NCBI GenBank assembly: GCA_037130365.1
Contig: JBAXTE010000022.1
Span: forward strand, 3,116-67,115
Direction of reading: 5' to 3'
Origin: Bacteroidota bacterium
GTDB taxonomy: Bacteria; Bacteroidota; Bacteroidia; Bacteroidales; WCHB1-69
DNA: 64,000 nucleotides
Every line of letters begins with the position of its first letter. Position 1 is the first letter of the stretch. Shown here in pieces: positions 23,150 to 54,311 of this stretch. Made by a program: the position numbers and the translations under genes. The notes beneath the pieces were generated by a model. The model was given only the letters and a program-made list of their open reading frames with translations, had not been told where the DNA came from and ran no database searches.

Positions 23150-23516
23150 TTTAAAGACAGTTTCTTTTAAAAAATGGTTGTTCCATTCCTAAACTATATT
23201 TCTTGGTTTTGCAAAAATAATACTTTTTTGCTAGAAACTATCTAAATCCTGTTAGATTTAGTAAAAGTGGATTTGTTAATACTAATAAAGGTTTTAGAAA
23301 ACTAAAACCTTTATCTTTGTCGGGGTAAGAACCCGATTTTGTTACATTTTAGGGTAATCTTTGGGTAGTTTGAAATATGTGTAAAACATTATAAAACTGA
23401 GTTTTAAGGGATAAATATATTTGGGGTAATTTTTAGTTAATGTAAAAAAGGTGTGCAAATGGTGTGCAATATTTAAAAATAGTGTACCTTTGACCTTGTC
23501 AAATATACATAAAAAT

Positions 23517-24794
23517 ATGGAAGCAAAAGCAGTAGTATATAAAAAATCAATAATAATTTATTATAAAAAAAACAAAGATACACTTCGTTTTCCAACTGGA
23601 ATAACCAAAATTCCAAGTGACATATACTACTTTAAAGAAGGCAGATTAACACCTAAAAACACAAATTATAAAAGCAAAAATGAATTAATTTTATCGATAT
23701 TGCAACCAATAAACGAATTTATTTTGAAATATAAACTTGCAAATGCTAAAGATCCTTCTGTTGCAGTTATAAAAGAATTTCTAGCAAATAAATCAGAAAA
23801 AGTTGAAGTTATTGAAAGTAAAGTTGAGCAAAATCAACTATCTTTTGAGGTGTTTTATAATAAAATGTTTGATGAAAAAAAACTTGAAGCAATTCAACCT
23901 TCAAGTCTAAAAGACTATAAAAGCACATTGAATTCACTTCTTCTATATCAACATATTAAAAGTAAAAAAAAACTGACTTTGGAAAATATTAACTCAGCAG
24001 ACTTCTTGAAAAAGTTTGAGAAATTTCTATCAGAAAAACAAACTGATAAAGACGGAAAGTCGCTGGAGAATTTTAAAACGGTTGGGGGATTAAATGTAAA
24101 CACTGTAAAAAAAAGAATTAGTACAACCACCACATTCTTGAGATATTGCCACAAAAGCAAAGAAATTGATTTTTCTATATCTCCAGGAGTGGATATGTTT
24201 AAAACACAACTAAAAAAATTCCGCCCAACTCTTACTATTATAACCAAGGAGGAACAACAACAACTTTTAGCTTTAAATCTTCAAGGTGATGAAGAAAAAT
24301 TAAGGGATATTTTAATCTTTTTATGTTTGACGGGGCTCAGGTATTCAGACCTTCTCACTTTACATAAAGATTTTATTCGTGGTGGGTATATAATAAAAGA
24401 AGCACAAAAAACAGGAATCCAATTTAAAATTCCATTGACAAAAAAAGCAACTGAATTAATCAAAAAGTACAATTGTAATTTCAATATTTTTTCAACACAA
24501 CAATTCAATTTAAACATTAAAGAATTGCTAAAAGAACATAATATTTGTACAGAAATAATTAATATTAAGAATAAGGTATATTCAACAACAGTATATACAC
24601 AAAAGGTTAAATATAAGGAGATTGGAACTCACACTGGCAGGAGGAGTTTTGTTGCAAATTGTATTATAAATGGTTTCCCAATTCCTGAAATAATGGGGTT
24701 CACAGGACACTCTCAGTTAAGTAGCTTTCAATGCTATGTTGACCAATTTCAAGTTTCAAAAAATGAGCTTGAAAAAATTCAAGCTCTGGACTAA
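23517..24794 (+). CDS. Tyrosine recombinase/integrase (SAM-like domain plus catalytic domain)
   Basis: TGLRYSD, HTGRRSF, TGH...CY catalytic R-H-x-x-R-H-Y set; ATG at 23517 (ORF track starts at GTG 23451). Confidence 0.93.
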   Translation: MEAKAVVYKKSIIIYYKKNKDTLRFPTGITKIPSDIYYFKEGRLTPKNTNYKSKNELILSILQPINEFILKYKLANAKDPSVAVIKEFLANKSEKVEVIESKVEQNQLSFEVFYNKMFDEKKLEAIQPSSLKDYKSTLNSLLLYQHIKSKKKLTLENINSADFLKKFEKFLSEKQTDKDGKSLENFKTVGGLNVNTVKKRISTTTTFLRYCHKSKEIDFSISPGVDMFKTQLKKFRPTLTIITKEEQQQLLALNLQGDEEKLRDILIFLCLTGLRYSDLLTLHKDFIRGGYIIKEAQKTGIQFKIPLTKKATELIKKYNCNFNIFSTQQFNLNIKELLKEHNICTEIINIKNKVYSTTVYTQKVKYKEIGTHTGRRSFVANCIINGFPIPEIMGFTGHSQLSSFQCYVDQFQVSKNELEKIQALD

Positions 24795-29187: not shown

Positions 29188-30747
29188 TTACTTTGTCGCT
29201 TTTTGTTTTTTCAGTAATGAAATCCCAATACTTGTTTGCTGATATTTTTGATTCCTATTTTTAATATTTTGCTTTATTAAATACTCAATATAGTTTTTCT
29301 CCAATAGAGGTTGTATATGCCTTTTTACATTATCCGTGTGATATTTCAAACCTATGAAGGCTAGTATCTCTTTTTTAGATTTAGGTGTTTTGCAAAATTC
29401 TATAATAGCAATTACTTGGTCGTATACTTGGTCGTATACTTGGTCGTATACTTGGTCGTTTACTTGGTCGTTTACTTGGTCGTTTACTTGATTATTAAAT
29501 GCATCATGAATAGGAATTTCAACAATAAAATGAAGTCTGTCTGGTTCATTTGCATCAAAATGTGGAACACCAGAACCATTTTCTTTTAATGCTCTTACAA
29601 TAGTAGGAATACCTGTACCTCTTCCTTCAGTAAGTTTCAGTTCCTTTAAAAATTCTCCAATTCTTCGGTTTCTATAACGCCTAGCTTTAACTACTCCTTT
29701 ATCAAAATCCGTTTGTTTAAGTGATGGGTCAGCACCGCTATAACTGATAATTTCAATTGCATTGGGAAGCACTCTAATTTCAATTGGGTCTTGTAATTCG
29801 TAATTCCTATGGTAAACGGCATTCGATAACGCTTCCTCAATTGCATCGTATGGATAATTAAACGATCTTTCCGATTTCTCATAATCTGAATGTTTAATCA
29901 CCTTTTCTTTGATAATATGAGCTTTTATATATGAAAGTACATCAATTAATTGTTTTTGGATAGTTCCTGTAAATATCTTTTCCGTAAACTCCTTGCCAGC
30001 CAGCCCATTTGGGAATTCAACTAATTCTATTTGAGCACCTTTAAAATATTTTTGTGGGTTTTTAGAAAACATTAAAAGCCCGACATTTTTTGGTAACAAG
30101 TATTCATTACCACCTTGACATAGATTCATTTTTTCAGAAAGGTCAAAAACTGACATGTTTTCGCTTTCCTCAAACAACTTACTTCGAGTTTCTCCTAAGT
30201 GTTCTCGCATAAGCGATTTGCTTAAATCAGAAACCGATGCAAATGAATTCACCCGGTCGTCAAATGGTATTTTGGCTGTAAGTCCTATTAACTCAGCCTG
30301 TTGTTGAGAATTTGGAATTATTGTGCTTGAATATTGTCGAATACGATAATTGTATGTTTTTGTTTTGGAAGTCACATCATCTGGGACTTTATATGGGCGA
30401 TTTGTTCCAGCTGGCACCCATATTACAAGAACATGCTTGCCATCGATTTCTTCCAAAGATAAATTAGGGAAATAGGGTGGTTGTATGAGGTTCCCATAAC
30501 GAAGCATATCCTGTTGAACGGCTTCAAATGAATCGGAATTAAATCCTAAAACAGGTCGAATCGGTTTTCCATTGGTTTCGTCAACACCAACCACAATATA
30601 TCCACTTCCTTCATTCTCGAAATCGTTGGCAAATGCACATACTGAACGCATAATTGTAACGGGATTCCAGCCCTCCTTGAATTCCATTCGTGGACCTTCT
30701 ACAACAGTACCTGACAGTAAATCTTCGATGTTGATTAATAAGCTCAT
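29188..30747 (-). CDS. Schlafen/AlbA_2 domain + HATPase_c_4-like domain + C-terminal HTH protein
   Basis: VEGPRMEFKE...AFAN..GYIVVGV; EEALSNAVYHRNY; YRNRRIGEFLKELKLTEGRGTG; NDQV repeat linker; HTH tail. Confidence 0.85.
   Translation of the reverse strand: MSLLINIEDLLSGTVVEGPRMEFKEGWNPVTIMRSVCAFANDFENEGSGYIVVGVDETNGKPIRPVLGFNSDSFEAVQQDMLRYGNLIQPPYFPNLSLEEIDGKHVLVIWVPAGTNRPYKVPDDVTSKTKTYNYRIRQYSSTIIPNSQQQAELIGLTAKIPFDDRVNSFASVSDLSKSLMREHLGETRSKLFEESENMSVFDLSEKMNLCQGGNEYLLPKNVGLLMFSKNPQKYFKGAQIELVEFPNGLAGKEFTEKIFTGTIQKQLIDVLSYIKAHIIKEKVIKHSDYEKSERSFNYPYDAIEEALSNAVYHRNYELQDPIEIRVLPNAIEIISYSGADPSLKQTDFDKGVVKARRYRNRRIGEFLKELKLTEGRGTGIPTIVRALKENGSGVPHFDANEPDRLHFIVEIPIHDAFNNQVNDQVNDQVNDQVYDQVYDQVYDQVIAIIEFCKTPKSKKEILAFIGLKYHTDNVKRHIQPLLEKNYIEYLIKQNIKNRNQKYQQTSIGISLLKKQKATK
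29413..29490. repeat. In-frame 12-bp tandem repeat, 6.5 copies (encodes NDQV/YDQV)
   Basis: tacttggtcgta x3, tacttggtcgtt x3, tacttg. Confidence 0.95.
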
Positions 30748-38149: not shown

Positions 38150-38223
38150 CGTATATTACTCTGTATAATTTCGGAATAAAACCAGTCACTCTGCTATTGT
38201 GTCAAACTGCTGCTATGTGAAGT
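38150..38223 (-). repeat. attC-like cassette repeat, copy A
   Basis: Minus strand cacatagcagcagtttgacacaatagcagagtg overlaps the stop of 38213..38659 and resembles copy E (gtttggcacaatagcaaggtgg). Confidence 0.5.
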
Positions 38224-38659
38224 ATTTTTGTTCGGTTTGTCTGTATATTTTATCTAATTTGTATAATGTTAAAAAATTGACTGACCAATATACTACAAAA
38301 GCAATAGTGCCAGTCAATGAAATCATAAAAAGTTCAATAAGTCCAAGACGTGTTTCCCCAAAAACTAATCCGAAAAGCAATCCAAAAAGAATACATTGAA
38401 TACCTGTTAATTGAATAAGTGTCAAACCCCAAACATTTCGATGTTTAGAAAATTTATTCCATAACGGAATTATCATAGTAAATTGAATTAGCAATGCAAG
38501 AATTGTCAAAGATGGAACAAACCAATTTAAAAAACCATTGTCTGGTAAAAAAAAAGCATCACCTTCATTTTTTATCAAATTAAATATTACCAGAAGCCCA
38601 AGAACTGTTAAAACACCAAATAATGTTGGTAATATTGTTTTAATCATTTTCGTTTTCAT
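38213..38659 (-). CDS. Hypothetical 4-TM membrane protein
   Basis: 148-aa ORF with four hydrophobic segments. Confidence 0.7.
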   Translation of the reverse strand: MKTKMIKTILPTLFGVLTVLGLLVIFNLIKNEGDAFFLPDNGFLNWFVPSLTILALLIQFTMIIPLWNKFSKHRNVWGLTLIQLTGIQCILFGLLFGLVFGETRLGLIELFMISLTGTIAFVVYWSVNFLTLYKLDKIYRQTEQKYFT

Positions 38660-38768: not shown

Positions 38769-39665
38769 TTATAAATTTCTGATTGCTCCATTCAAATATT
38801 GATAAGTTTTTGCACCATTTTTTGTAATAAATGTAATTGGATTTCCATTTGATTTACTTATAACAATAGCATCATTAAAAGGCTCAATTGCCATAATTGA
38901 ATTCAAAGTAATCGTTGAGCTTTTTTCATTACTTTTAAAAAGAACTCTATTTGTTGTAATATTAATAACTCCTTTACCTCTTGATATTTTTTTAATTTCT
39001 TTTTCCATTCCAACATTGTAACTTCCTAAATTATAGCTCAATCCTTTTGCTATTTTAATCCTAACACTTGGTCCACCATAATTAATTCTTTTAGTTACTT
39101 GTCTTTGCTCTATAAGTTCAACATTTTCTTCTCGATATATGCATTGTTCATTTTTCTGCAAAATAAAATCTGAATTCAAGTTTGGAAATATTCCTTTGTC
39201 TAACTCCCAATTTGTTACGTAATATTCAAATTTATTCTTAATCTTTTCTGAAGTGTCATATTCACTTACTTTTAAATCCTTACTATATTCAATAATACTT
39301 TGAATTTCATCGGGATCTAAGGCATCATCATTATTGATTTTTTCAAAAATCATTGATTCAATCATGTCCTTATTAACTAAGGATAAAATTTCATCATTCG
39401 ATTCATTTGGAAACAAGTTTGAAAAAAAATCTAAATAGGAATTACCTAAAGTTTTAACATTTTCATAATTAATTTTCGTAGAATATCCTTGAATAATTCT
39501 TTTTTTAACAGCATTATAATCTTCATTATTAGACCATTCTTGTCTATTATTTATTAAATATTCTAAGTCTTTCTGATTGTCTGGAAAAGTACGAATTGCA
39601 TTGTTTAATTTGTTTATCAATTTTATGGCTTTTCCCCAGCCTTTAAACCAATTTATTATTCCCAT
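38769..39665 (-). CDS. Hypothetical protein: helical N-terminus with a TerB-like DDALDPDE motif and a PH-like beta C-terminus
   Basis: GVINITTNRVLFKS...TITLNSIMAIE pattern; ATG at 39665. Confidence 0.55.
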   Translation of the reverse strand: MGIINWFKGWGKAIKLINKLNNAIRTFPDNQKDLEYLINNRQEWSNNEDYNAVKKRIIQGYSTKINYENVKTLGNSYLDFFSNLFPNESNDEILSLVNKDMIESMIFEKINNDDALDPDEIQSIIEYSKDLKVSEYDTSEKIKNKFEYYVTNWELDKGIFPNLNSDFILQKNEQCIYREENVELIEQRQVTKRINYGGPSVRIKIAKGLSYNLGSYNVGMEKEIKKISRGKGVINITTNRVLFKSNEKSSTITLNSIMAIEPFNDAIVISKSNGNPITFITKNGAKTYQYLNGAIRNL

Positions 39666-39734
39666 AGTTTTATTTTTTAATAGTTTTTCAATATAATACG
39701 GGTATACAAAAATATACCACATAAGGTTTGTTTA

Positions 39735-39835
39735 ACTTATTGCTAAAGGATGCAAATTTGGGCAATAGTTTACAAAATAATACTTACATTTTAAATTTCC
39801 ACCAAAGTTAATTAATCTTGTTTAACATTCAAAAC
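39735..39835 (-). repeat. attC-like cassette repeat, copy B (degenerate)
   Basis: caccaaagttaattaatcttgtttaacattc (39800-39830) matches copy D at 25/31; minus-strand end tattgcccaaatttgcatcctttagc parallels tactgcacaaagtcgcctccgttata. Confidence 0.5.
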
Positions 39836-39930
39836 TTGTATAATACTTTAACATCAAATAGAATTTGTTTTTTTCTAAAATACAACTATTCGTTAAACAA
39901 TAAATTTTAGTTTTCAAATATCATATTTGG

Positions 39931-40045
39931 AGTTTTGTAGTTCAAAGATATATGTAATTTTTTAGAATTACATATATTAATTACTTTTGTTGAACTTTCA
40001 AAACCCGCCACAACACTCTTGCACTATGTCGTTGTTATTCAAAGG
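39931..40045 (-). repeat. attC-like cassette repeat, copy C
   Basis: Shares tttcaaaacccgccac with copy E; hairpin with perfect 12-bp arms atatatgtaatt/aattacatatat and outer arms agttttgtagttcaa/ttgaactttcaaaac; overlaps the stop of 39998..40855. Confidence 0.6.
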
Positions 40046-40855
40046 TATAATATTACTTTTCTTTTCAGAATTACTATTAACTTGAAAAATTTTGTTATTC
40101 AAGGAATCGATTTTAATTGTTATATTATCCTTAAATTGCAAATCAAAAATACTCTTATTAAGAGTGGCTGGAACTAGAAGTTTAAACTCATTCAAATTAG
40201 TAACTTTAATATCGGAAATTTCTTTTTTCAAAAATAATGTTGATGCTATTACAAGAATTGTCATTATACCAAATCCAATATTGCCAATTTTGAAACACCT
40301 AGCTCCATAAATTAAATTATCACCCTTTATGTTGTCAATTGGCGTTGTGTTATTTATGATATAAATCAAATCTTCAATTTCTGAATTTACGAAATCGAGT
40401 TCTATTTCCTTTCTTTCTTTCTTTGTAATTGAAATAGTGCTTCGACTAGGATACTTATATTTGTCTACAGTCAATGTTTTAATTGCGTGAAGAATTGACA
40501 AAAGATAATGTAATAGAACAATTAAAAACAAAAAGGACAAGGGTAATTTAAGCCATAAACTAACTCCGCTTAGATTATTTATTAATAATGGAATAAATAA
40601 TGCAAATATAGAGGTGACAATACTTGCTTGACCAACTAACTGTGAATTTTTATTTTCTATAGTAGTTCTTCTGTCTCTTTGATAATCGTGAATTTCCTTA
40701 AGATATGTCAAATATCTATCTGCAACTTTAATCTCTTTAGAATGACAATATATTTCTTTAATGTCTGATGTTTTATCAGTTTTTAACTCTTCTGATTTTA
40801 AAGTTTGAAATGACCTTTTTATTAGACCAATATATATTAGATATTGCTTTATCAT
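39998..40855 (-). CDS. 3-TM membrane protein resembling Pycsar (PycTM)-type effectors
   Basis: RRTTIENKNSQLVG leads into TM1, then TM2 ending LLSILHAIKTL, a soluble linker with IINN..IDNIK, and TM3; similarity judged by eye. Confidence 0.55.
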   Translation of the reverse strand: MIKQYLIYIGLIKRSFQTLKSEELKTDKTSDIKEIYCHSKEIKVADRYLTYLKEIHDYQRDRRTTIENKNSQLVGQASIVTSIFALFIPLLINNLSGVSLWLKLPLSFLFLIVLLHYLLSILHAIKTLTVDKYKYPSRSTISITKKERKEIELDFVNSEIEDLIYIINNTTPIDNIKGDNLIYGARCFKIGNIGFGIMTILVIASTLFLKKEISDIKVTNLNEFKLLVPATLNKSIFDLQFKDNITIKIDSLNNKIFQVNSNSEKKSNIIPLNNNDIVQECCGGF

Positions 40856-41778
40856 ATGATTTCAGTTAAATAGTTAATAATTTCATCTGATATTTTTAGA
40901 CCTGTTTCCATTTCAATCCAAGCCCATTGCCCATTTGGATTGATTTCTAAAAAAATGTAATTGCCATTTTTATCTCTTACTAAATCTATTGCTCCAAATG
41001 AGATATTGAGTTTTTTGGTTAATTGAATACATTTTTGTTCGATTTCAATAGGTAGATTATATTTCAAAAATGGATTTTTTTCTTTTCTCCAATCTGTTAT
41101 AGTATTTTTATTTTCCTGAGAGTTAACTTTGGCTGAAAATACTTTATCCCCAACAATAGTAATTCTTAACTCATAATCCTTTAAAATATTATTTTGAATT
41201 ATGCAAGGTGTTAAATCATAATGTAATATATTATCAATGACCGTTTTATCTATTTGATTGGTAAAAATAGTTTTAACCCCATCTTCAAGGTTAATTCTCC
41301 CTTGTCTAATTGGTTTAATTATTACATCTTCATTATTAAGTATGATAAAATCTTTTAATTCTTTATGATTATTTGCTACTATCGTTTCTGGGACATTAAA
41401 CCCTAAGCTTTTAGCTAGCTTTAATTGATAAATTTTATTTTCCGCTTTATATACAAAACTTGGATGACTAAGCCATCTTTTAGAGTCTATCAATATGAAA
41501 GCATTGTCAAACAATGTTTCATAGTCGCCTAAAAGAAATAATTGTTGTCCTTTATTAGAAGTTTCTATTTCTGGAAGTTTAGTTCTTCTGAACCAAACCG
41601 AATTAAACTCGGCAATCCCATTTATTGAAAATTTAAAATCTGAAGAATTAGTAAAGGAATAGTTGTATTTATTGATGTCTTCACAATTCAATCTAAAATA
41701 CTTGATATCTCTTTCATTCAGCTTTTCAATAACAAAGTCAGCTGTAAAATCTTGCTTGTGAGTTATAATTAATATCAT
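40852..41778 (-). CDS. ATP-grasp ribosomal peptide maturase (MvdC/MvdD-like graspetide synthetase)
   Basis: ILIITHKQDFTADFV, SVWFRR, ENKIYQL..AKSLGFNVPETIV, IIKPI, YELRITIVG, DWR, FGAIDL, FLEINPNGQW. Confidence 0.92.
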   Translation of the reverse strand: MILIITHKQDFTADFVIEKLNERDIKYFRLNCEDINKYNYSFTNSSDFKFSINGIAEFNSVWFRRTKLPEIETSNKGQQLFLLGDYETLFDNAFILIDSKRWLSHPSFVYKAENKIYQLKLAKSLGFNVPETIVANNHKELKDFIILNNEDVIIKPIRQGRINLEDGVKTIFTNQIDKTVIDNILHYDLTPCIIQNNILKDYELRITIVGDKVFSAKVNSQENKNTITDWRKEKNPFLKYNLPIEIEQKCIQLTKKLNISFGAIDLVRDKNGNYIFLEINPNGQWAWIEMETGLKISDEIINYLTEII

Positions 41779-42122
41779 TTGTCTGAATCTGTTCCTTCTA
41801 CTGATTCTGTAATGGTTTGGGTGTCCATTAAAAGCTTGAATATTTTTAAGTCATTGTCACTATCACTTGGTTCAGCTAAGGTTAGCGTTTCCGTGCTTGT
41901 ATCTAAAAGCTGTCTTAAATTGAATTTATAATCATTATCTGAATCACTTGATTCTCCTGAACTTTTAGTATAAGTTTCGGTATCCAAGGAAACGTATTTA
42001 ATTGCTGGCATTTCAGTATCTTTAATAACAGATAGGTTTTGTTTTTGGGAATATTCGATCAGAGAAAAATTCAAATTTTTCAAAATAGGATTTTCAGTAA
42101 ATTCTAAAATTAATGGTTTCAT
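41775..42122 (-). CDS. Graspetide (omega-ester peptide) precursor with three core repeats
   Basis: Leader MKPLILEFTE...; cores DTETYTKSSGESSDSDND, DTSTETLTLAEPSDSDND, DTQTITESVEGTDSDK; ATGA overlap with the ligase. Confidence 0.88.
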   Translation of the reverse strand: MKPLILEFTENPILKNLNFSLIEYSQKQNLSVIKDTEMPAIKYVSLDTETYTKSSGESSDSDNDYKFNLRQLLDTSTETLTLAEPSDSDNDLKIFKLLMDTQTITESVEGTDSDK

Positions 42123-42163: not shown

Positions 42164-42303
42164 CTTGTATATAACGGAGGCGACTTTGTGCAGTAGCGGA
42201 GTCTATTCCGTTTTGTACTCACTGTACACCAAAATTAATTAATTATTTCAAACATTCCAAATATGCCAACTTGCTATTTCAAGTAAACTGATGTATTAGT
42301 CCG
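42164..42303 (-). repeat. attC-like cassette repeat, copy D
   Basis: Shares cggaggc(g/a)actttg, accaaaattaattaattatttcaa and cttgctatt with copy E; ends gttatatacaag on the minus strand just before the precursor gene. Confidence 0.65.
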
Positions 42304-49181: not shown

Positions 49182-49320
49182 CTTGACCTATCGGAGGCAA
49201 CTTTGAGTATTTGCAAATTAAATCACATTTTATTAAAATTGCATACCAAAATTAATTAATTATTTCAATCTTTCAAAACCCGCCACCTTGCTATTGTGCC
49301 AAACCACTTTTAATATTAGC
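49182..49320 (-). repeat. attC-like cassette repeat, copy E
   Basis: Begins 8 nt after the AlbA-gene stop; shares blocks with copies A, C and D. Confidence 0.65.
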
Positions 49321-53210: not shown

Positions 53211-54311
53211 ATGTCAAATAATACAAAAAGCGCATTACTTAAAAGAGGTATAGATAGTGAATCAACTCGAAAATTAGTTGAGAATGGTTATACTGTACAA
53301 TCTCTTCAACAAAAATCATTAGAAACATTGCGATTATTAGGGATACCTAAAATACAAGCAATTAAACTATTAGATGGACGACCACCAATTCCAAATAAAA
53401 TCTTTAATCAGGTTTTGCATGATTCAAAGTACGTGTGTTGTATTTGCAGAGAAAAAAATAAAGGGATAATTATTCACCATATTGATGAATGGAGTGTTAG
53501 CCACAATCACAATTATGATAATTTAGCTGTTTTATGCACCGAACATCATGATGAAGCCCATACAAATAGACAAATGACAATTATGCTTAGCCCTAAAAGG
53601 ATTAGAAGTTCAAGAGATAAATGGTATTCTCAGGTTAAAGCAAATGATGAATCTATTATAAATGAACAGCTAGGTTCTTTTGATGATAAACTTCACACAG
53701 ATGAAATTACTATTAATAAAATAGATATAAATAAGTCCAAAGAAAATGAGAGAAAACTCAAACATTCTTTAAGATTGGAAAAAAGAGTATATAAAGAACT
53801 TATTGACCAAAAGTTTTGCTCAAACAGGGAAAATTTCGACCAACTTTTAAAGAATCCTGCATCGAAGTTTATTTCATCGAAAGTATTTATTCGTGATGTT
53901 AATGACAAAACATATCCCAACCCTGATTTTACAAGGTCAAACAAAATTAGTCCTTGGTTTAAAACATTTTTTCATGATACTTACCATAACGGAATTGAAT
54001 TTGTATTAGATGCAGGAATAGGAACAATTATTATAATGGACGAAAATGGTTATTGGGAGCCGTTAAGAAAATCTGATGACTCTAGAAAAAGCAATCCAAA
54101 ATTCAAAGTTTTAAGAGCACAAACAATTGGGAAAATTCCATATAATAATATTGTTGACTTTAAAGCAAATGGAGACGATTACAACCCAGAGCCACATTTG
54201 TTTTGTAAATTTGATATTAATGGAATGCCATATGAAGAAATATATTATAAAAGGTTAGGAAATTTTTTAGCAAGAGAATTTGATAAAGGTAAACAGACTA
54301 TATTCAAATAG
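53211..54311 (+). CDS. HNH endonuclease domain protein
   Basis: CCIC...IHHID...NLAVLCTEHHDEAH zinc-finger HNH. Confidence 0.85.
   Translation: MSNNTKSALLKRGIDSESTRKLVENGYTVQSLQQKSLETLRLLGIPKIQAIKLLDGRPPIPNKIFNQVLHDSKYVCCICREKNKGIIIHHIDEWSVSHNHNYDNLAVLCTEHHDEAHTNRQMTIMLSPKRIRSSRDKWYSQVKANDESIINEQLGSFDDKLHTDEITINKIDINKSKENERKLKHSLRLEKRVYKELIDQKFCSNRENFDQLLKNPASKFISSKVFIRDVNDKTYPNPDFTRSNKISPWFKTFFHDTYHNGIEFVLDAGIGTIIIMDENGYWEPLRKSDDSRKSNPKFKVLRAQTIGKIPYNNIVDFKANGDDYNPEPHLFCKFDINGMPYEEIYYKRLGNFLAREFDKGKQTIFK

Follow-up and report, generated by a model that had tools for sequence, protein, structure and literature searches.

Analysis of a 64,000-nt stretch of DNA from a Bacteroidota bacterium (Bacteroidales, WCHB1-69; assembly GCA_037130365.1, contig JBAXTE010000022.1, positions 3,116 to 67,115 of the forward strand), referred to here as the window, identified three adjacent minus-strand genes as a graspetide cassette of the thuringinin branch: a precursor peptide, the ATP-grasp ligase that would modify it and a membrane protein with three transmembrane (TM) helices. 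The genes are chained: open reading frame (ORF) calls placed one ATGA overlap between the precursor stop and the ligase start codons (41775-41778) and a second one between the ligase stop and the membrane-gene start codons (40852-40855). Because its gene is ATGA-coupled, the precursor would be produced in step with the ligase. The precursor gene starts 287 bp after the end of jetD, a gene identified by the PADLOC model JetD (6.4e-149). An earlier note on this DNA had described the same chain past jetD and proposed that it was an antiphage system; the coordinates and both overlaps were reproduced exactly by the ORF calls, and so was the gap to jetD. No ABC transporter, C39 peptidase or acetyltransferase was called within +-10 kb of the trio, as the same note had remarked of the near surroundings. 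The cassette and its flanks comprise the following features:

41775-42122, minus strand: graspetide precursor, 115 aa (ORF call and homologue alignment)
40852-41778, minus strand: MvdC/MvdD-type ATP-grasp peptide maturase, 308 aa (NCBIfam and Pfam matches)
39998-40855, minus strand: three-TM partner protein, 285 aa, unnamed family (helices, homologues and AlphaFold2 model)
42172-42278, minus strand: upstream repeat with a promoter-like site (repeat comparison with 49189-49295)
39925-40030, minus strand: strong stem-loop across the membrane-gene stop codon (fold with DNA parameters, compared with shuffles)

The 115-aa peptide carries three cores, DTETYTKSSGESSDSDND, DTSTETLTLAEPSDSDND and DTQTITESVEGTDSDK, all of the type T-x-T-x-T-x3/4-E-x2-D-S-D. 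Residues 1 to about 45 form the leader, which contains the segments KPLILEF, IEYS and NLSV and was invariant or nearly so across 14 precursors; KPLILEF, at its start, agrees with Phhx(1,2)h, the signature given for leaders in PMC8939145. In the alignment of the 14 homologues T50, T52, D60, E84, D87 and T103 were invariant, and T48, K53, E57, D62, D64, T75, T79, D89, T101, T105, D112 and D114 were at least 90% conserved. The three Thr/Glu/Asp core repeats recognized in the earlier note are therefore present and under conservation.

The ligase matched the NCBIfam models TIGR04187 (1.5e-60), TIGR04185 (MvdC; 9.9e-59) and TIGR04184 (6.6e-51), and the Pfam models RimK (PF08443, 3.2e-10) and MvdD pre-ATP-grasp (PF21068, 2.7e-06). 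All NCBIfam scores were under the curated equivalog cut-offs, so that the enzyme is a relative of these models and not an orthologue of MvdC or MvdD. These matches, together with the DWR motif in TITDWRKEK, bear out the full ATP-grasp enzyme that had been noted earlier. Ligases from trios of this type are 55-88% identical to the window ligase. The locus thus contains an MvdC/MvdD-type ligase with a pre-ATP-grasp domain and, adjacent to it, a precursor with a leader, Thr donors and Asp/Glu acceptors, the features by which graspetides are recognized.

Makarova et al. 2022 (PMC8939145) enter two ligases, from Flavobacterium frigidarium DSM 17623 and from 'Microgenomates OLB23', as Branch_Thuringinin, cluster13, gr_06, where cluster13 is a precursor cluster and gr_06 stands for group 6 of Lee et al. 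2020, omega-ester peptides (graspetides); the F. frigidarium precursor is printed there as a group 6 precursor. Compared with the window, the F. frigidarium locus is 64% identical for the ligase, 63% for the precursor and 60% for the membrane protein; over the F. frigidarium and OLB23 loci together, identities are 64-72% for the ligases and 63-81% for the precursors. The window ligase and precursor group with these catalogued thuringinin-branch group 6 members. The F. frigidarium locus has the same three genes in the same order, the same leader and the same three T/E/D cores, whereas the window copy lies in an island with Wadjet, restriction-modification (RM) and Schlafen genes and has a membrane gene about 20 codons longer.

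The thuringinin-branch loci of the same paper include an uncharacterised membrane protein family, 'cluster 18', described there as specific to the branch; a role in peptide transport was guessed for it, as the loci are without known transporters. The family of the window partner occurs in Bacteroidota and in alphaproteobacterial thuringinin-branch loci and fits this description of cluster 18, a match to the description and not to the cluster number of a homologue. The combination of genes, which the earlier note had believed to be undescribed, is therefore a catalogued one; that part of the claim held which concerns defence, since nothing relevant on a graspetide or its ATP-grasp enzyme as a phage-defence system, and no description of this gene set as one, was found in the literature searched.

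The thuringinin cluster of Bacillus thuringiensis (TgnA/TgnB; group 3) resembles the trio in its multi-core precursor with Thr...Glu...Asp-x-Asp cores, in the use of a single ATP-grasp enzyme for all rings and, according to the same source, in its branch of the ligase tree and in the possession of a branch-specific uncharacterised membrane protein. It differs in phylum, core spacing and group, and the Bacillus membrane protein was compared by description only.

Conservation of the trio and of its membrane partner

In genome loci seeded from the membrane-protein alignment the ligase gene was found directly upstream of the membrane gene in 10 of 10 cases, and the precursor gene was present in 9 of the 10. 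Three of three loci seeded from ligase homologues (55-72% identity) contained a gene for a 110-115-aa peptide and the ligase gene, overlapped by a membrane gene that belongs to the same family. The trio is kept as a unit from either starting point, which answers a check proposed in the earlier note. All related loci that were retrieved have the three genes in this order, so that the arrangement is not due to chance; the coupling of all three genes by translation was also kept among the trio loci. Identities to the other trios run parallel for the three proteins (membrane protein 33-82%, ligase 51-88%, precursor 42-83%), as expected for a unit that is inherited together.

The 285-aa membrane protein has three hydrophobic helices, modelled by AlphaFold2 at residues 42-94, 100-132 and 152-208 (pLDDT 70.7). 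It matched no Pfam, NCBIfam or PADLOC family, and a Foldseek search with the model gave nothing significant (best E 0.45 in PDB and 0.097 in BFVD). The family comprises 96 close homologues and, by a whole-library profile search, 301 representative clusters. Among 86 diverse members R62, E67, K69, Q76, Y135, K177, L181 and F188 are conserved, and the first six of these are the conserved polar residues of the family.

In one homologue, P0329 (482 aa), the ATP-grasp ligase and the membrane domain are joined in a single protein. The cluster of this natural fusion has 20 members and a variant, P0358, is found on 11 contigs, excluding the possibility of a sequencing accident. The fusion indicates that the ligase and the membrane protein act together, and it places the N-terminal part of the membrane protein, in all probability, in the cytoplasm. 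With this topology the conserved residues would all lie at the cytoplasmic face of the membrane, and the C-terminal tail, which is variable among homologues and disordered in the AlphaFold2 model, would face outward. The fusion belongs to a two-gene variant of the cassette (L061, 7643-9449; also L062-L064), made of a 118-aa precursor and the 482-aa protein. In L061 this variant directly follows a tyrosine integrase gene and a Gabija pair (OLD-like ATPase and UvrD helicase) and is itself followed by a transposase gene.

The gene located after the ligase in two alphaproteobacterial plasmid loci codes for a protein of the same family (hmmsearch 2.2e-10; hhalign 95.9%, E 5.8e-9). The membrane partner is thus an old family, spread across phyla.

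The window copy of the membrane gene is about 20 codons longer than all homologues (39998-40060; tail ...NNNDIVQECCGGF) and enters the flanking repeat and the hairpin. It seems that, at the cassette boundary, another sequence has taken the place of its original 3' end.

The membrane protein had been called Pycsar-like in the earlier note. PycTM domains were gathered from 15 Bacteroidota genomes, and 9 of them were aligned as a reference. Profile-profile comparison (hhalign) with this alignment yielded probabilities of 1.5% for a 21-member alignment of the partner family, 8.9% for the 86 members and 7.7% for the alphaproteobacterial branch. Neither the window protein nor any of 107 family members (21 + 86) had a Pfam match to PycTM (PF18967, at E<=1) or to SLATT. 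Homology to PycTM or SLATT is not supported by these per-member scans and the three insignificant profile comparisons. The alphaproteobacterial partners P0384, P0390 and P0391 carry a precomputed PF18967 label that was not reproduced by our own hmmscan at E<=1; the weak Pfam matches seen instead were to DUF2721 (P0384 and several relatives), DUF4231 (P0384) and MscS_TM/DUF2200 (P0390 and P0391). The PycC model matched none of the three trio proteins or their immediate neighbours, and the enzyme at this locus is an ATP-grasp ligase; thus neither a PycTM effector nor an adjacent PycC cyclase, the two components that define Pycsar, was found.

What is left of the comparison is a loose likeness in topology. 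Pycsar and the cyclic oligonucleotide-based antiphage signalling systems (CBASS) with TM effectors likewise have an enzyme gene followed by a small membrane protein gene in a defence-island setting, and PycTM resembles the partner in its helices, laid out as 2+1 and with a helical insert, and in a short [D/E]-x-K-[A/N] motif that precedes TM1. The trio differs from both systems in having neither a cyclase nor a nucleotide-binding domain, and no significant profile similarity. To judge from sequence comparisons of this kind, a functional analogy to PycTM would be neither supported nor counted against.

Neighbourhood and mobility of the cassette

A repeat located upstream of the precursor gene (42172-42278) is 73% identical over 107 nt to a sequence upstream of jetA (49189-49295). 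Its core, ACCAAAATTAATTAA, is exact at 42228-42242 and 49245-49259 and occurs with one mismatch at 39801-39815; all three sites precede a minus-strand unit, the last one preceding the gene after the trio. On the gene strand the 42172-42278 repeat reads TATTTGG-N20-TAATTTTGG, with TTTG 20 nt ahead of TAATTTTGG. The promoter consensus of Bacteroidota is TTTG / TAnnTTTG, and the repeat is promoter-like in that its sequence appears to fit this pattern. A sigma-70 scan also listed 42269-42242.

A stem-loop at 39925-40030, across the stop codon of the membrane gene, had a folding energy of -16.1 kcal/mol, compared with -6.5 +- 2.0 kcal/mol for shuffled sequences (z = -4.78; 0 of 200 shuffles as stable). 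It was not among the output of a simple terminator scan. The stem-loop is likely to form the 3' end of the transcription unit. As the trio has a promoter-like repeat upstream and a strong stem-loop at the membrane-gene stop, it looks like an independent transcription unit and not an extension of the Wadjet operon.

Related co-oriented repeats were observed upstream of jetA (49189-49295), the precursor gene (42172-42278) and a gene for a 317-aa protein (39800-39842), and also at 38178-38207. The flanking repeats were considered as attC sites of integron cassettes, and this reading was rejected: the copies upstream of jetA, the precursor gene and the 317-aa gene folded no better than shuffles (z +0.55 to -1.2). 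Since the copies are without a hairpin signal, they look like shared Bacteroidota promoter elements rather than attC sites.

The window contains an island in which a tyrosine integrase gene (23451-24794) is followed by a type I RM locus, two Schlafen genes, the trio and Wadjet. Confirmed genes of the island are Wadjet JetABCD, two Schlafen AlbA_2 genes, the type I RM genes HsdM/S/R, a DUF3644 gene and the tyrosine integrase, which marks the low-coordinate edge. The defence island of the earlier note was recovered as far as the type I RM and Schlafen genes are concerned; its HNH gene (53211-54311) had no Pfam match at E<=0.001. Within the type I RM locus the gap between hsdR and hsdS is occupied by a gene for a Schlafen-type AlbA_2/HATPase_c_4/Fic-like_C protein (29188-30747), which immediately adjoins hsdR, by a helix-turn-helix gene and by the DUF3644 gene.

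Two further genes lie after the trio. The first codes for a 317-aa protein (38769-39722) with weak C-terminal PH/GRAM-like matches (Vps36 GLUE, 1.1e-4) and the second for a 148-aa multi-helix membrane protein (38213-38659); each appears to be a unit of its own. They were considered as a fourth component of the cassette and rejected, as no relatives were found beside other trios.

Mobile elements and defence genes were also found around the other trios. The former include integrase genes directly upstream, serine recombinases and transfer genes of integrative and conjugative elements (ICEs), and the latter Shosta, Hachiman with GAPS4, AbiC, PemK, DNA methylases and a gene with an LmuB_C domain (Lamassu LmuB-like). 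In Flavobacterium nitrogenifigens (L006/L015, 6536-8601) a co-oriented Shosta-like pair (PADLOC ShosT/ShosA; DprA/SLOG) ends about 120 bp before the precursor gene, and the region holding the pair and the trio is flanked by serine recombinase genes.

Around 20 loci, ORFs no more than 7 kb away gave matches to 370 PADLOC models (98 proteins) and to 189 (112 proteins). In contrast, a control of 94 ORFs, taken from eight regions chosen arbitrarily in three genomes that carry the trio, yielded 29, mostly housekeeping cross-hits such as IscS-like SspA/DndA. The systems among the matches near the trios were Wadjet, RM types I, II and III, Shosta (twice), Hachiman, DpdF and PsyrTA. These are counts of models matched and not per-locus hits. 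The models are redundant, ORFs were called crudely and the control genomes are few, and the difference, although large, is not a calibrated enrichment. As a rough test, it agrees with the closeness to defence genes which the earlier note had suggested checking. That note had also raised the question of an existing PADLOC model, and none was found: PADLOC-DB 2.0 gave zero families at E<=0.1 for the precursor, the ligase and the membrane protein. RiPP (ribosomally synthesized peptide that is modified post-translationally) clusters are common cargo of Bacteroidota ICEs (bioRxiv 10.64898/2026.08.04.741601), and for this reason the context alone is not decisive.

The membrane family was present in 6 of 401 Bacteroidota species genomes, belonging to six different genera, and was absent from the seven other genomes of the same order that were listed. 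Decayed copies were encountered repeatedly: a ligase frameshifted into three frames (L001, 5106-6020), a ligase cut to its last 40 codons with no precursor (L004, 3723-3842), a precursor reduced to 31 codons by an integrase gene (L019, 8833-9078) and a membrane gene with 7 stop codons (G287:C34:108834-109478). A tblastn search with the membrane protein gave no match among 50,697 records of phages and 72,556 of plasmids, and the latter contained only distant relatives of the ligase.

The L001 cassette (LMZU01000023.1, 'Microgenomates bacterium OLB23') is 70-81% identical to those of Bacteroidota, and its contig is assigned to a genome of the candidate phyla radiation. Either mis-binning or a recent transfer is likely.

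Role of the cassette

We regard the identification of the cassette as secure, but not the assignment of a biological role. The explanation that we consider the best, and hold with moderate confidence, is that of a mobile thuringinin-branch graspetide cassette in which the three-TM partner works with the ligase for the export or the scaffolding of the peptide. The conserved leader would be recognized by the ATP-grasp ligase, which is predicted to join, in each core, the hydroxyl groups of the conserved Thr residues to the carboxyl groups of the conserved Glu/Asp residues, giving small side-chain macrocycles. The three-TM protein is an obligate partner and not a passenger. It probably acts on the cytoplasmic side of the inner membrane, physically touching the ligase, and takes the cross-linked peptide to or across the membrane. 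By analogy, this could be a role such as that of MdnE, a membrane protein reported to be needed as a scaffold for the correct processing of microviridin (Weiz et al. 2011, cited in PMC8939145). The microviridin pathway shares with the trio a leader-guided ATP-grasp macrocyclisation and a membrane protein in maturation; it differs in its membrane protein, since MdnE is an ABC transporter and the partner here has three TM helices and no ATPase, and in the use of two ligases and a GNAT enzyme. The cassette would be self-contained, with its own promoter-like element and terminal hairpin, and is probably horizontally mobile cargo of the integrase-bounded island that also carries the Wadjet, type I RM and Schlafen-type genes.

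The published guess of a transport role, the lack of any other exporter or peptidase within 10 kb and the MdnE precedent argue for export or scaffolding, and the ligase fusion supports it as well, since it fits a membrane-bound maturation complex. Several observations weigh against it. The association of the cassette with defence islands is strong. A double-glycine motif, or any other signal for export or cleavage, is lacking in the precursor, whose ATGA coupling to the enzyme implies that the two are made in nearly equimolar amounts, an odd arrangement for a natural product that is secreted. A three-TM protein without an ATPase and with its conserved residues all on the cytoplasmic side is no known peptide exporter, and the literature searched contained no experiment on any member of the membrane family.

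These observations lead to a defence or abortive-infection module gated by the peptide, which we regard as a tentative alternative. The precursor, cross-linked or unmodified and produced in a one-to-one ratio with its two partners, would close or open the three-TM protein, and, as a still speculative further step, a phage that disturbs ligase activity, ATP supply or peptide turnover would cause the membrane protein to depolarise the cell. On a broader scale, and just as tentatively, the thuringinin-branch trios might be a widespread mobile immune or conflict module and not natural-product clusters, the ligase-cross-linked peptide serving as latch or ligand for a membrane-breaching effector. 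The earlier note had put forward a similar mechanism, with the peptide as intracellular signal or latch for a membrane effector, which is purely conjectural. Consistent with defence are the PADLOC matches near the 20 loci (370 and 189 models against 29 in the control), the fusion variant directly after Gabija and an integrase, the patchy occurrence in 6 of 401 species, the frequency of decayed copies, the translational coupling that is kept for all three genes, the lack of an exporter or peptidase within 10 kb and of an export or cleavage signal in the precursor, and the presumably cytoplasmic position of the conserved face of the membrane protein. However, this amounts to guilt by association, from a control set of three genomes with crude ORF calls and redundant models, and RiPP clusters are also common ICE cargo in Bacteroidota (bioRxiv 10.64898/2026.08.04.741601). 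Moreover, the characterised graspetides are all protease inhibitors according to PMC8939145. The trio has no homology to PycTM or to any PADLOC effector, and no recognisable sensor domain was found.

The peptide might also be released by a general route and harm competitors, or inhibit their proteases, with the membrane protein providing immunity to the producer. Bacteriocin immunity usually takes the form of a small membrane protein encoded beside the peptide gene, the cassette genes are accessory cargo on mobile DNA, and the basic K53, at least 90% conserved and located in the loop of core 1, would suit the inhibition of a trypsin-like protease. We consider this improbable: immunity proteins are not normally fused to a modifying enzyme, the membrane family is conserved across phyla at what would be its cytoplasmic face while its outward tail varies, and no export route is encoded. 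Equally doubtful is an addiction module similar to toxin-antitoxin pairs, in which a harmful membrane protein or peptide, neutralised or anchored by the other components, stabilises the island; a variant of this proposal that seems no less remote has the peptide, as an intracellular inhibitor, block a protease that belongs to a competing element or to a phage. The tight coupling of the three genes, the integrases, resolvases and ICE genes that adjoin the cassette and the frequent decayed copies would agree with addiction, but there is no similarity to known toxin or antitoxin families and no direct evidence of toxicity, and a set of three components, one of them an ATP-dependent enzyme, is elaborate for such a module.

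With a chemistry and a set of genes that have both been catalogued before, the locus is in itself an ordinary one. The interest lies in the job of the obligate membrane partner, in the reason for the coupling of precursor and enzyme, and in why a rare cassette frequents anti-phage islands on integrative elements. If the partner is an exporter, it would represent a new minimal peptide export or scaffold protein. If the role in defence or conflict is true, the cassette would be the first graspetide-based immune system, with a RiPP in the place held by cyclic nucleotides in CBASS and Pycsar, and would reveal the function of this RiPP branch for its producers.

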